From a virus (taxonomy: Duplodnaviria > Heunggongvirae > Uroviricota > Caudoviricetes), in the IMG/VR virus record IMGVR_UViG_2880372215_000003: DNA of 52,839 nucleotides; one strand, 5' to 3'. Each line of letters starts with the position of its first letter. Within the stretch, counting starts at the first letter, position 1. A program made the position numbers. Shown one piece after another: positions 12,001 through 18,000 of this stretch.

Positions 12001-15000
12001 CGGAACCAAAAAGCATGCGAGCTCTGCCGTCCGGGGTTGTACCTGCCGTTCACCAGCCGCTGGCGGAAGATAAATCACTACTGCCATTTTTCAGCGATGA
12101 GCGGGTGATCCGTGCTGCGGGTGGCGCTGGTGCACTGTCTGACTGGTTATTACGTCACGTGAAATCCTGCCAGTGGCTACACGGTGATTATCATCACAGC
12201 GAAACCGTCATTCACCGTTACGGTACCGGCGCGATGGTGTTGTGCTGGCACTGCGACAACCAGCTGCGGGAGCAGACATCTGATTCACTGGATCAACTTG
12301 CTCAACAGAATCTGGCCGCCTGGATGATTGACATCATCCGTCACGCAATGAATGGCGCACAGGAGCGTGAATTATCTCTGGCTGAATTATCCTGGTGGGC
12401 GGTCCGCAATCAGGTGGCGGACGCGCTACCGGAAGCGGTATTACGTCGTTCGCTGGGGTTGCGTGCGGAAAAAATCCGCTCCGTATACCGTGAAAGCGAC
12501 ATCATACCGGGAGAACAGACCGCCACCAGCATACTGAAGCAGCGCACAAAAAATATTGCGCTACCGCCTCACACCCACCAGCAACAGAACCCACCACAGG
12601 AAAAGACGGTGGTCAGCATTGCCGTTGATCCGGAGTCTCCGGAATCCTTCATGAAACGACCTAAACGTCGCCGCTGGGTAAATGAGAAATACACACGCTG
12701 GGTAAAGACACAGCCGTGTGCGTGTTGTGGTAAGCCAGCGGACGATCCTCATCATCTGATTGGTCATGGTCAGGGCGGAATGGGAACAAAATCCCACGAT
12801 ATTTTCACGCTACCGCTGTGTCGGGAGCATCACAACGAGCTTCATGCGGATCCGCTGGCGTTCGAAGAAAAGCATGGTTCCCAGGTTGATTTAATTTTTC
12901 GTTTTCTTGATCACGCCTTTGCAACCGGCGTGCTCGGGTAAAAGAGGTTACTGATGCGTATAGAGTTTGTTTTGCCTTACCCGCCGACGGTGAACACCTA
13001 CTGGCGACGTCGTGGCAGCACATATTTTGTATCAAAAGCCGGTGAGCGTTATCGCCGGGATGTGGCACTTATTGTTCGCCAGCAGCGGCTGAAATTAAAC
13101 CTGTCCGGAAGGCTGGTGATAAAGATTATTGCAGAGCCACCGGATAAGCGCCGTCGTGACCTGGACAATATCCTGAAAGCACCACTGGATGTGCTGACGC
13201 ATGCCGGACTTCTCATAGACGACGAGCAGTTTGATGAAATCAATATTGTGCGCGGTCAGCTCGTTCCTGGTGAGCGGCTGGGGATAAAAATCACAGAACT
13301 GGAGTGCGCATGAATAACCACTATTTACAGTTTGTGCGTGAGCAGCTCATTATCGCCACCGCTGATTTGAGTGGGGCAACAAAAGGTCAGCTTGAAGCCT
13401 GGCAGGAGAATGCCATGTTCGATACAGGGCGTTACAGGCGAAAAAAAATCCGGTACCGCGATGAAGTGACTGGAAAAATGATAACGCGGGATAATCCACC
13501 AATCCCGGGAAAGCAATCGCTGGCGAAGGTGACGTCAATTCCTCTGGTCAGTCCGGTTGAGTTTTCGACATCATCGTGGCGGCGGGCTGTTCTGTCTCTT
13601 GAAGAACATCATAAAGCCTGGTTGTTGTGGTGTTACAGCGGGAGTATTTGTTGGGAATATCAGATCGCGATAACACAGTGGGCGTGGAATGAATTTAATA
13701 CTCAATCCGGTACCAGAAAAATTGCAGGGAAAACGCAGGAACGCCTGAAAAAATTAATCTGGCTGGCGGCGCAGGCAGTAAAAGCAGAACTTTTTGGTGG
13801 GGAAGGTTATGAATACAAGGAGCTGGCATTACTGGTGGGAGTGACAACTAAAAACTGGTCCAAAACATTTACTCGTCACTGGGTTGCAATGAAACACATT
13901 TTTCACCGACTGGATAGTGAGGCTTTATTGTTTGTAATGAGAACGCGTTCAAAACAAAAGGCGGCATTTTCAAAGCAAAGTGTTGCAAAAGTAGATTGAA
14001 AGGCATATATTTCATGCAAATCTGATATTTTGCCGATTTTGTACGTGATGGCAAAAGCAAACAAAACCCGCCCACAAGCGGGTTTTTTTGTGCCACTTAT
14101 CTCGGATAGACATGGTGAATGCGCTGGTGGAGGAAGTAAGGGTAATTTTTAACCAGGTGATTCTTGAATGCTTGCAACATTGATTTCGTAACGTTATTAT
14201 CCTGCGCCCGGCCCTTTAGCTCAGTGGTGAGAGCGAGCGACTCATAATCGCCAGGCCGCTGGTTCAAATCCAGCAAGGGCCACCATCACATACCGCCATT
14301 AGCTCATCGGGATAGAACGCCAGCCTTCGAAGCTGGTTTCGCGGGGTTCGAGTCTCCGATGGCGGTCCATTATCGGTATTCTGCGTTTTTAGCTCAGCAG
14401 GACAGAGCAATTGCCTTCTAAGCAATCGGTCACTGGTTCGACTCCAGTACAACGCGCCACACTTATTTTCCCGGCTCGCTTTTGCGGGCCTTTTTTGTAT
14501 CTGCGCCACGCCCGGCACATACCAACCACAGAGCCTTTCGGGGGGGGGGGGAGCTTACGGAGTGGTCAGTGTGACTTTCTCTGTGGGCAGATCGCTCCCG
14601 GGCGTTGGCTCACCCACCCAAAGGAACGTCACGATGTTTGGTATTTTTGGTAAAAAAAGCCCGCAGAGCGGCAACGGAAATTAAAAAGTTTGAAAAACGC
14701 GATCTGGCACAGGTGGTGATTAACGCCGCATACCTGGTGGCCTGTGCAGATGGTGAATGTGAGGCATCCGAGAAAGCGAAGATCGAACAGGTACTGCGTA
14801 ATCAGCCTGCGCTGTCCGCGTTTACGTCAGAAATTAATGCGATTAGCGCAACCATTATCGGTCAGCTGGATACGAACTTTAAAACTGGTCGTCGTGCGGC
14901 GTTACGTGAGATCGAGGATGTGAAACACGATACGCGTGAAGCGGAAGATGTGCTGGATGTGGCGGTGGCCATTGCGGAGGCAGACGGCGAAATTGAGCCG

Positions 15001-18000
15001 GAAGAGCGCAAGGTGCTGGAAGAGATTGCCGGTGTTCTGGGTCTTCGTCTGGAGAATCACCTGTGACGGTAAAACTGCGCCTGACTGTGGCTGCACTCCT
15101 GCTGTTTCTGGTGGTGATGGTGGATTTCACCAGCAGAATCATGTCGGTGCTGGCGGATGGGGTGCTGGTCTGCGGCATTGTGGTATTGCTGTGGCCGGTG
15201 ATAAAAAGAAACAGCCTGCATAATGCTTGATTTTTTTGTTTGCTGTTTATTAAAAACACTTCTGCATGGTGAATCCCCTGTGCGGAGGGGCGATCAGCAA
15301 GAAGGTATATGGGATAATCGCGGATTCAGGTGCTGGTACTGAATTCACCGGGAGGCACCCGGCACCATGCTTTGCCACAAAAGTGTTATTTCTGTTTTTC
15401 TCAAACTATCATCGTTATCCCTTTATTTCCGGCTGCGCATGGCGCGGCCTTTTTTTACGACCAGCCACTGGCAGATGGTCATCCTGTGATTTGATTCCGG
15501 TTCCGGCTTTTTAACTCTGTTCCTGTACACGGGAGAAATTCGATGTCGATTAAACATTATGATGTTGTCAGGGCGGCGTCGCCGTCAGACCTTGCGGAAA
15601 AGCTGACACACAAACTGAAAGAGGGCTGGCAGCCGTTTGGTAGTCCGGTGGCCATAACCCCTTATACCCTGATGCAGGCGATTACAGCAGAAGGTGATGT
15701 GGTGGTCAGTGGTGCAACTGAGCCGGATTGGTACTACGTCATCGTACTGGCCGGGCAGTCCAATGCCATGGCTTACGGTGAAGGGCTTCCGCTGCCGGAT
15801 TCATACGATGCTCCGGATCCGCGCATTAAACAGCTGGCGCGCCGCAGTACAGTGACGCCGGGTGGGGCTGCCTGCAGATATAACGATATTATTCCGGCCG
15901 ACCACTGCCTGCATGATGTGCAGGATATGAGTACGCTGAATCATCCGAAGGCAGACCTGAGCAAAGGGCAGTACGGCTGTGTCGGCCAGGGGTTACATAT
16001 TGCCAAAAAACTGCTCCCGTATATCCCGAATAACGCGGGGATCCTGCTGGTACCATGCTGTCGTGGTGGTTCGGCATTTACCCAGGGCGCGGAGGGGACA
16101 TTCAGCGAGTCCACGGGGGCCAGCCAGGATTCGGCACGCTGGGGGGTGGGCAAGCCGTTATATCAGGATCTGATTTCCCGCACAAAAGCGGCATTGCAGA
16201 AAAATCCCAAAAACGTTCTGCTGGCCGTCTGCTGGATGCAGGGAGAGTTTGACATGAGCGCCGCCACCCACGCACAGCAACCTGCGCTGTTTACAGCCAT
16301 GCTGGCACAGTTTCGTGCTGACCTCTCCGTGTTTAACGCGCAGTGCCATGGTGGCAGTGCTGCAGATGTGCCGTGGATTTGTGGTGACACGACGTATTAC
16401 TGGAAAAATACATACGCTACCCAGTACGACACCGTGTACGGCGGGTATAAAAACAGGGAGAGTGAGGGCGTTTATTTTGTGCCCTTCATGACAGACGGTA
16501 ACGGCGTCAATACCGCCACTAACGCGCCGGCAGAAGATCCGGATATTCCGGCATCAGGATATTACGGTGCGGCATCGAGAACGAATGGAAACCAGGTATC
16601 ATCAAACCGCCCGACACATTTCAGTTCATGGGCGCGCAGGAGCATTATTCCGGATCGTCTGGCAACCGCTATTCTGAACGCAGCCGGGCGCACCTCAGCC
16701 TTCATCAGTGGTAAGGCACCGGAAATCAAACCCTCGCCCGGCGGCAACACGCCATCGGGTCCGTCTGCAGATACGTCCGTTCGCACAATCTCCCTGCTGC
16801 CGGCAGCCGGAGAGGCTGCTGCGCAGGGCTGGAGCATTAAGGATGGCGGAATTCAGTTGTCAGATGGTGTATTTAAGATCACCAGGCAGAGCAATAAAAC
16901 CTGGTCCCTGACGCATCCGGTGGATGACGCAATTACCCTGCTGACACAGGGCGGCAGACTGACCTGTAAGTTCCGCCTGTCAGGCGCGCTGACCAACAAT
17001 CAGTTCGGGCTGGGGATTTATCTGTATACGGATGCTCCCGTTCCTGATGGTGTGGCGATGACGGGTACCGGTAATCCGTTCCTGATGTCGTACTTTACTC
17101 AGACCACTGACGGCAGAGTGAATCTGATGCATCACAGGAAAGCCGGAAACACGAAGCTGGGGGAGTTCGGCGATTACGGTAACGACTGGCAGACGCTGGA
17201 GCTGGTGTTCACCGCCGGCAGTGCCACGGTTACTCCGAAACTGAATGGAGTGGCTGGCCCGGCATTCCAGGTTATAAAAGACAGTCTGACACTGGGACTG
17301 AATGCGCTGACGCTGACGGATGTTACAAAAAATGCAGCGTATGGCGTTGAGATAGAAAGTCTGGTGCTGGAGATAAATGCACCGGCAGCATAATAAAAAA
17401 AGAGCCAGCGACTGACCTGAAAGAAGACGCTGGCTAAAAGGCCTTATATGTTTGTAGAGACTTATTTTTCACAGACAGCAATGATGCCTGTCAATATATT
17501 ATCAATATGCGGATTGTTTCAGTTACAGATGCTTTATTAAGGAAAAAAACAGCCAGCACTGACTTTCGGTGGAGAGGTGCTGGCTCAGAAGGATAGTTGG
17601 ATTTCACATGATACTTATGCCTGGCGGTATATTTTCTGACAGACAGTGACGGGTGTTGTCAAGATATTGTGTCATTTATAACCTGAATCAGGGGGTGGCC
17701 GGAATGTTATCTGGCATTTTTAGCAGAGCCTGAATGCCATAATCACGGCTCCCGGCGTTGGCCGTCAGTGGGTGACACTGGCGGCTTTTTTGTTTTTCTT
17801 TACTTTCATTTTCTGTCGGCGGTGACGGAGACATACATCAGATGGAAAAAATCACAACAGGTGTGTCATACACCACGTCAGCGGTGGGGACGGGATACTG
17901 GTTACTGCAGCTGCTGGACAAAGTCTCTCCGTCCCAGTGGGTGGCGATAGGCGTGCTGGGGAGTCTGCTGTTTGGGCTGCTGACATATCTGACGAACCTG

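Follow-up and report, generated by a model that had tools for sequence, protein, structure and literature searches.

The subject of this analysis is a pair of overlapping genes in a tailed phage (Duplodnaviria; Heunggongvirae; Uroviricota; Caudoviricetes) recorded as IMGVR_UViG_2880372215_000003; "the window" is the whole stretch of 52,839 nucleotides (nt) that was analysed, and the features named below lie on its plus strand unless stated otherwise. The first gene, tciA, encodes a TerB-family protein of 142 amino acids as annotated from a TTG codon (14638..15066, in an open reading frame, ORF, that is open from 14605; RefSeq WP_001303509.1), and the second, tciB, a small hydrophobic DUF3927 protein of 55 codons with a GTG start (15063..15230; WP_000216653.1). 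Pairs annotated 'TerB family' and 'DUF3927 family' occur in RefSeq in hundreds of E. coli genomes, phage records label them tciA/tciB, and the two are named by homology in the phage P1 record AF234173.1. The names reportedly go back to the P1 genome publication of 2004. A first reading, made from the sequence alone, had put the pair forward as an undescribed system; this was not borne out, as the pair is already in the P1 record, Pfam, PHROGs and RefSeq, and we regard its identity and anatomy as those of a known, named and uncharacterised phage pair with near certainty. The pair itself is ordinary for specialists. The part of the cassette that appears not to have been described before is the RNA leader that precedes tciA.

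The assignment of TciA to TerB, made originally from the sequence alone, was confirmed by both profile and structure searches. The protein matches Pfam TerB (PF05099) at 52.4 bits, against a cut-off of 24.4, over profile positions 7-109 of 118, and phrog_632 ('tellurite resistance') over its full length (E 2.6e-65). A profile of 36 homologs matches the solved Klebsiella pneumoniae TerB, 2JXU (E 5e-14, query residues 12-137 against 18-144 of the chain). The AlphaFold2 model (predicted local distance difference test, pLDDT, 81.5) is all-alpha with six helices; its top four matches in the Protein Data Bank are chains of 2H5N, which we take to be a TerB-like protein, with probability 1.00 and TM-scores (template modelling scores) of 0.55-0.65, and with E values of only 6e-3 to 8e-2. 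Weak matches, far below the family cut-offs, were found to DUF533 (the YebE family, E 1.7e-5) and to a DjlA model (E 4e-7). TciA is a complete, stand-alone TerB-fold protein. Its sequence holds two D-G-x5-E motifs; among the 36 homologs there is no variation at G39, E45, G117 and E123, and hardly any at D38 and D116. The window protein has all six residues, and the paired acidic motifs may form a putative metal site. The body of the protein is acidic (net charge -12), and its N-terminal helix is basic, with a net charge of +5 over the first 25 residues.

For TciB the searches gave DUF3927 (PF13064, 62.6 bits against a cut-off of 25) and phrog_1470 ('TciB-like...', E 5.6e-30) as its family. Hydropathy has two peaks, at about residues 10-19 and 34-43, the ends of the protein are basic, and a conserved polar centre, D21-F-T-S-R25 ... 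D32-G33, lies between the hydrophobic segments. Of the earlier description of this partner as a small two-helix membrane protein, the small and hydrophobic part stands, on family and hydropathy; the two helices come from hydropathy and the positive-inside rule, and the structure model gives a single one. TciB was found only in phages and P1-like phage-plasmids, and DUF3927 comprises only 111 clusters at 50% identity in 1.84 billion proteins.

The GTG of tciB overlaps the TGA of tciA as GTGA (15063-15066), and the two genes are thus set up for one mRNA and coupled translation. Such coupling had been proposed at the outset, and it is upheld by a junction of -8 to 0 nt in every relative examined: prophages of E. 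coli, Pantoea, Franconibacter, Pseudescherichia and Buttiauxella, phage-plasmids of the P1/P7/D6 type, temperate Klebsiella phages and the virulent N4-like phage Pollock. Similar arrangements extend to more distant phages. In the Erwinia jumbo phage Asesino a TciB-shaped ORF of 60 amino acids, ending ...WPVIK plus a basic tail, begins 3 nt after terB (L219, 1121-1303), and in Pseudomonas phage AF an unannotated ORF with one transmembrane segment overlaps the terB stop as GTGA (L220, 1114-1335). Judged by these sequences, the architecture of TerB plus a small hydrophobic partner is wider than DUF3927. Between the E. coli, Pantoea, Franconibacter and Pseudescherichia phages the dN/dS of tciA is 0.00-0.03, at dS values of 0.75-2.7 that are saturated, and that of tciB between the same genera is 0.13-0.5; for most pairs of genera the tciA value is about 0.01-0.03. 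Across genera, purifying selection on tciA is very strong. Genes for tRNAs lie near tciAB in the window, JLK-2012, P1 and Asesino.

The place of the cassette in the window is that of the Shiga toxin genes in Stx phages. Upstream lies the gene for the Q antiterminator (13304..13999; Pfam PF06323, E 7e-92), which is annotated 'bacteriophage antitermination protein Q' in the near-identical E. coli O157:H7 record. It is followed by a tR'-like intrinsic terminator hairpin, AAAACCCGC..GCGGGTTTT plus a T-run (14063..14093), which was read from the sequence and which the terminator scan lists as the same hairpin on the minus strand; the 933W annotation has terminators at the equivalent place. A consensus scan found a putative promoter-like site, TTGCAA-17-TATTAT, 5' of the tRNA genes at 14172..14200, the same relative position as the annotated putative tRNA promoter pT of 933W. 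Three tRNA genes, Met(cat), Arg(tcg) and Arg(tct), occupy 14210..14459 (ARAGORN, Rfam tRNA matches, RefSeq). The first of these, at 14210-14285, is called Met(cat) by ARAGORN, and tRNA-Ile (ileZ, reading AUA after lysidine modification) by RefSeq and by its 933W homolog. Directly 5' of the cassette the scan places an intrinsic terminator (14473..14496; a 7-bp stem with 6 GC pairs, then TTTTTT), and between it and tciA the consensus scan found no promoter-like site. Beyond the pair, a terminator-like hairpin (15431..15456; an 8-bp stem with 7 GC pairs, then TTTTTTT) precedes a nanS-p-like esterase gene (15543..17393; DUF1737, SASA and DUF6645 domains by Pfam, 'SASA family carbohydrate esterase' in RefSeq), 3' of which come the holin and then the lysozyme genes.

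This order, Q, terminator, three tRNAs, pair, nanS-like esterase and lysis genes, is as the sequence-only reading had it. In 933W the order is pR'-qut-terminators-pT-ileZ-argN-argO-terminator-stx2AB-esterase-S-R, and at the moron site of lambdoid and Stx phages the Q gene, terminators, ileZ-argN-argO-type tRNAs, second terminator, cargo, small RNA (sRNA) segment, nanS-p esterase, S and R follow one another as they do here, with flanking DNA in common. The equation with the stx site, likewise proposed from the sequence, is supported by this order and by the DNA directly 3' of tciB: Shigella phage 75/02 also has the segment at 15250-15370, where about 95 nt separate it from the 3' end of stx1B. 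The differences are that the cargo is tciAB instead of stx, and that 933W has about 54 nt between the terminator and stx2A, with no leader there. The place 3' of pR' has been described as a moron insertion site (Tree et al. 2014), and in other phages the same slot holds stx, HNH or Ant genes.

The segment 14460-15542 shares 99.8% identity with an E. coli O157:H7 prophage (record NZ_CP017440.1, L097). That prophage is defective, with int, DUF1627 and gpJ frameshifted or partial (pseudogenised); it carries nleG7 and a DUF1076 gene, with IS66/IS256 elements at its right end. In another prophage, PPompW / Stx2a phage 14040, an ISEc20 element has inserted some 80 nt beyond the 3' end of the third tRNA, within the leader and near its poly-G position (L007, 4082-5540); this prophage is without the tciAB cassette.

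The leader of tciA is a structured element of about 140 nt (14493..14636), supported by conservation, covariation and the minimum free energy (MFE) fold. The 160 nt 5' of the ATG are conserved across five genera, and the DNA further upstream is unrelated. Two sets of helices can be drawn. Fold A consists of helix P1, pairing 14505-14515 with 14598-14609, and helix P2, CCACAGAG / CTCTGTGG, pairing 14526-14533 with 14579-14586. In fold B an anti-Shine-Dalgarno (anti-SD) segment, CCTTT (14534-14538), pairs with the Shine-Dalgarno (SD) sequence AAAGG (14620-14624), and is joined by helix b (14547-14554 with 14608-14615) and helix c (14559-14567 with 14590-14598). Folds A and B have interleaved helices, and must therefore be alternatives or parts of one double pseudoknot.

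Both folds are supported by comparison of leaders; in all, 78 distinct leaders were collected from viral contigs by pattern search. In a MAFFT alignment of 40 leaders, 98.6% of the cells are pairing for fold A and 93.9% for fold B, as against 31-53% when the partner was slid by 1-3 columns. Among divergent leaders aligned with covariance models, changes on both sides are seen in 14 of the 18 pairs of fold A and in 18 of the 22 of fold B, counts to be read with the fact that these alignments were fitted to the respective fold and so favour it. The duplex of anti-SD and helix b amounts to -19 to -36 kcal/mol in every divergent type, with z between -3 and -6 in most, and the MFE structure buries the SD in all eight leader types folded, in seven of them via the long anti-SD/b helix. 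In the tciA copy of the window the duplex is weaker, at z -1.6 compared with about -4.7 in intact-type leaders. The possibility that the 5' segment pairs solely in a local hairpin, GCGCC..GGCGC, was considered; both RNAalifold and covariation favour the long-range P1 instead (C-G to U-A in 17 sequences), and since the hairpin is present in the thermodynamic optimum, it and P1 were retained as alternatives.

Sequestration of the SD by a fold-back helix is known to limit translation of the hok mRNA and of the maturation gene of phage MS2. The tciA leader resembles these in having a long-range helix that pairs an anti-SD with the SD and in having a second, competing set of helices that is also conserved; it differs in showing no sequence or Rfam relationship to them. 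Rfam gave no plus-strand match in 14460-14640, whether the gathering threshold was applied or E values as high as 5 were allowed, and on this ground identity with a known riboswitch or ribozyme, or with the Pas, AgvB or AsxR sRNAs, was rejected. The Pas sRNAs flank the esterase gene or adjoin the holin/lysozyme operon and do not lie 5' of TerB (2026 preprint). A full-text literature search for the leader sequence returned only unrelated papers.

The leader is not confined to tciA. A second, divergent copy (19110..19253; covariance models R1 46.3 bits, R2 52.8 bits) ends in the window at the ATG of an antirepressor-like gene with P22_AR_N and ORF11CD3 domains; that gene (19251-19820) lies between the lysozyme and Rz-like lysis genes, like ant of 933W. 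Elsewhere the leader stands 5' of 933W ant, of HNH_3 and KilA-N genes and of three genes without a Pfam match, with copies at 9714-9857 in 933W (L217), 3489-3631 in L127, 702-848 in L156 and 3692-3815 in L121. Almost all of the copies listed are preceded by a hairpin plus T-run, the stem sequences of which differ. Since it also precedes HNH, KilA-N, P22_AR_N and no-match genes, an element specific to tciA was ruled out. The leader was not found 5' of stx2A in 933W, nor in the searched stretches of lambda, P1, Pollock, 434 and Stx1 phage 75/02. We tentatively suggest, with somewhat less than even confidence, that the leader represents an undescribed class of phage cis-regulatory RNA, a switch between SD-free and SD-buried states or a double pseudoknot, that gates morons of the late operon, and that the tciAB behind it is a minimal natural TerB module, which could make TerB biochemistry tractable. 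If so, the leader could keep tciAB, ant, HNH and KilA-N genes translationally silent until a signal or Q-modified transcription refolds the RNA, and, were it to control translation, it would be an uncatalogued general regulator of accessory genes in Stx-type phages.

The window copy of the cassette departs from its relatives in both leader and coding sequence. Allele comparison places a poly-G tract, G12, in helix b of the leader (14540..14551). Intact-type leaders read GGGGGTGAGC at this site; the copies of enterohemorrhagic E. coli (EHEC) have a T-to-G change, with a run of G6 to G12, which from its sequence looks like a hypermutable tract. The window leader also carries a G-to-A change in the conserved GGCGC segment. 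In the gene itself, a start at 14634 had been read from the sequence, but the ATG at that position is out of frame with the TerB ORF. According to the ORF list, the sequence and the alignment of alleles, it is the ancestral tciA start and now opens an ORF of only 16 codons (14634..14684), MFGIFGKKSPQSGNGN and a stop, because a run of seven A residues at 14652-14658 (A7) shifts the frame; JLK-2012 and the large majority of homologs have A6 or an interrupted run. Intact relatives begin MFGIFGKKARRAA... and encode 143 amino acids, and the homolog consensus starts MFG(I/F)F(G/K)KK(A/T)RRAA. The RefSeq call from TTG 14638 gives MVFLVKKARRAA...; this TTG is a weak start codon; 12 nt separate it from the SD core, and a good ATG of a different frame stands 4 nt ahead of it. 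Compared with the 36 homologs, window TciA has a cysteine in place of the aromatic residue of VAYADG (Y-to-C) and a valine in place of the alanine in AQAV, both at nearly invariant sites, and Gly3 is lost.

This allele is widespread. Of 638 matching complete E. coli records, 548 have the exact 81-mer with A7 and 3 have its A6 counterpart, an 80-mer; the carriers of the A7 81-mer include O157:H7, O111:H8 and other lineages, often with two or three copies per genome. In 135 cassettes from viral and genome collections, a sample biased toward relatives of the query, the ATG frame of tciA is intact in 70 and broken in 61, by lesions that are independent (A7, a G deletion in codon 3, other early stops), and tciB is intact in almost all, including almost all A7 copies. 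Given the A7 frameshift that leaves a weak TTG, the Y-to-C and A-to-V changes and the altered leader, the tciA of the window is probably an attenuated or dead allele, with tciB intact. Programmed frameshifting or transcriptional slippage at A7 was considered, as +1 would restore the frame; it is not favoured, the A-site codon in the 0 frame being AGC, which is not hungry. In one copy (L067) the extra base is retained although the sequence there is AAAGAAA, which is non-slippery. A7 is shorter than the runs known to slip efficiently. EHEC copies thus hold two variable homopolymers in one cassette, the poly-G of the leader and the A6/A7 run of codons 7-9, so that strains that are nearly identical in other respects may differ in how they express the cargo.

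What the pair does can be approached through its relatives. The closest is phage P1, where TciA is 39% identical over its full length (E 7e-19), TciB is a DUF3927 protein, stop and start overlap and tRNA genes flank the pair. P1 differs in a third gene, tciC, of 35 amino acids, with no counterpart in the window, where no tciC-like ORF with a single transmembrane segment was found 3' of tciB and the next element is an STnc100-like RNA. Nor did tciC turn up in any other copy outside P1 for which the downstream ORFs were listed, and it therefore does not appear to define the wider family. The P1 genes also belong to the C1-repressed ban operon, in contrast to the late operon here, and the structured leader was not found in the P1 stretch searched. 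With TerB of the terZABCDE(F) operon TciA shares length and domain, the two acidic ADG motifs and an N-terminus of hydrophobic/basic character. Unlike the ter operon, the prophage has no TerC, TerD/E or TerZ/A neighbors, the partner is a 55-residue DUF3927 protein, with no TerC match in Pfam, rather than the multi-pass TerC, and the context is phage only. DjlA and YebE (DUF533) likewise have a TerB-like domain at the inner membrane, a location that we presume for TciA; in DjlA, which has a J domain, and in YebE the anchor is part of the same polypeptide, whereas here the presumed anchor would be a separate, coupled gene (for the DjlA architecture see PMC11709261). By analogy, and without implying membership, tciAB could be seen as a split version of DjlA/YebE, in parallel to TerB plus TerC.

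On balance we lean, by a modest degree, toward tciAB being a phage moron, a membrane-associated TerB module made during lytic growth. Its production would depend mainly on read-through by Q-modified polymerase in the lytic cycle, and such late-lytic expression, which the sequence-only reading had also supposed, is the part that we hold to be likely. TciB may then act on the cytoplasmic side of the inner membrane as a tether or partner of TciA, a complex that we consider fairly probable. The module would alter the physiology of the infected cell, in its envelope or its divalent ions, to the benefit of the phage, the likeliest effect being to weaken attacks on the membrane, for instance by superinfecting phage or pore-forming colicins, in the manner of the ter operon; a protective or exclusion role of this sort is argued by analogy and seems to us rather doubtful. 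Phage Ter components have been proposed to serve in competition with superinfecting phages (Iyer et al. 2021, Aravind's group, PMC7824862). We place the action of the pair in lytic growth rather than in lysogenic conversion because virulent phages carry it, its context in P1 is C1-repressed and it is shielded by a terminator here. Its presence in virulent N4-like and jumbo phages and the burial of the SD in the MFE fold of the leader are consistent with a lytic role. A phage version of TerB with only two genes might prove simpler to analyse than a ter operon of seven; it is extremely constrained, and its range includes lambdoid and N4-like phages and, in a form whose partner is TciB-shaped, a jumbo phage.

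A number of points weigh against this reading. The literature searched holds no experiment on TciA or TciB, and the statement of the sequence-only reading that their function is unknown stands accordingly. In P1, tciABC was non-essential in a CRISPR interference screen (PMC10695390), it is a variable region of P1-like phage-plasmids that was lost in about half of one subgroup (PMC9603915), and a P1vir transcriptome study mentions it descriptively only. The stress-sensing or phage-exclusion role that the sequence-only reading thought plausible finds no significant match in PADLOC-DB 2.0, where TciA has only a weak partial match to PDC-S48 (E 0.005, 35 residues) and TciB has none. Instead of a hairpin, the AlphaFold2 model of TciB is one unbroken helix from residue 3 to 54. 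With respect to contact between TciA and TciB, the fused TerB-DUF3927 proteins that might have given Rosetta-stone evidence were rejected as artefacts, three (P0014, P0060, P0289) being frameshift read-throughs and two (P0248, P0303) chimeric or assembly products. The timing of expression also varies with the phage: the genes are in the late operon of lambdoid phages, in a C1-controlled early operon of P1, and among RNA-polymerase, replication and nucleotide-metabolism genes in Pollock, so a single stage-specific role is not obvious. Finally, 'ion or envelope physiology' is itself drawn by analogy to TerB.

The most serious alternative, which we regard as close to an even call, is that the cassette of this prophage is simply decaying, with tciA a pseudogene without function and tciB surviving for lack of time. 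The stop after 16 codons in the ATG frame, the loss of nearly invariant residues in VAYADG and AQAV and of Gly3, the altered leader (G-to-A in GGCGC, T-to-G, G12) with its anti-SD/b duplex at only z -1.6, the several independent lesions that break the frame in 61 of the 135 cassettes, and the defective state of the host prophage can all be explained in this way. Decay fits less well with a remainder of the ORF that is open and that RefSeq calls from a TTG 12 nt from the SD, with the intact tciB of almost all A7 copies, or with the breadth of the A7 81-mer, which, being wide and often multi-copy, indicates an allele that persists and spreads. Moreover, it concerns this copy only and leaves a strongly constrained family unexplained; decay here is compatible with a functional family.

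Other explanations address the function of the family, and of these a device for lysis timing, in which the membrane protein and a cytoplasmic regulator tune holin triggering or membrane energisation, is improbable in our view. TciB is small and hydrophobic, the lambdoid pair always lies between pR' and the lysis genes, and in Pantoea, Pseudescherichia and Buttiauxella a holin-like ORF follows tciB within a few hundred to about 1,100 nt with no esterase between; yet the P1 genes are in the ban operon and not beside lysis genes, the Pollock pair is among RNA-polymerase, replication and nucleotide-metabolism genes, that of Asesino is at the genome start beside tRNAs, and the slot holds stx, HNH or Ant elsewhere. 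Position alone thus says little, the slot being a general moron site. A module for lysogenic conversion, conferring resistance to tellurite, oxidative stress or colicins, is less probable still, even though TciA is homologous to TerB of the terZABCDE operon, the naming in P1 follows that homology and the tRNA promoter-like site could give some read-through. The terminator directly 5', the sequestered SD, the failure to find a promoter-like site of its own, the strictly virulent phages that carry the pair and the frequent disruption of tciA in resident prophages all argue otherwise, as does the lack of nearby genes for TerC, TerD and TerE. To our knowledge, TerB alone confers no tellurite resistance. 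We give least credence to a toxin-antitoxin or abortive-infection pair with TciB as a depolarising peptide and TciA as its antidote. The antitoxin-first order, the 4-nt overlap and a downstream product that is a small hydrophobic peptide would suit such a pair, but broken tciA with intact tciB is common and stably carried (61/135), no significant PADLOC match was obtained for the pair, virulent phages carry it, and conservation is much stronger in TciA than in TciB, whereas a dedicated antidote would suggest the reverse.

Further RNA elements lie near the pair or elsewhere in the window. Directly 3' of tciB, at 15235..15406, is an STnc100/PasD-like sRNA element (Rfam RF02076, 93.4 bits, gathering threshold 47), part of which is common to Stx phages 3' of stx. 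STnc100 is related to the PasD sRNAs that flank the esterase gene, and TerB is among the genes usually found near PasA/PasC sRNAs (2026 preprint). More distantly, Rfam matches a sok antitoxin RNA at 11120-11294 (116.9 bits), adjoining hokD, and DicF on the minus strand at 4223-4274 (76.7 bits); in P1, a dicF-like region lies upstream of the stretch with the tRNA genes and tciABC.

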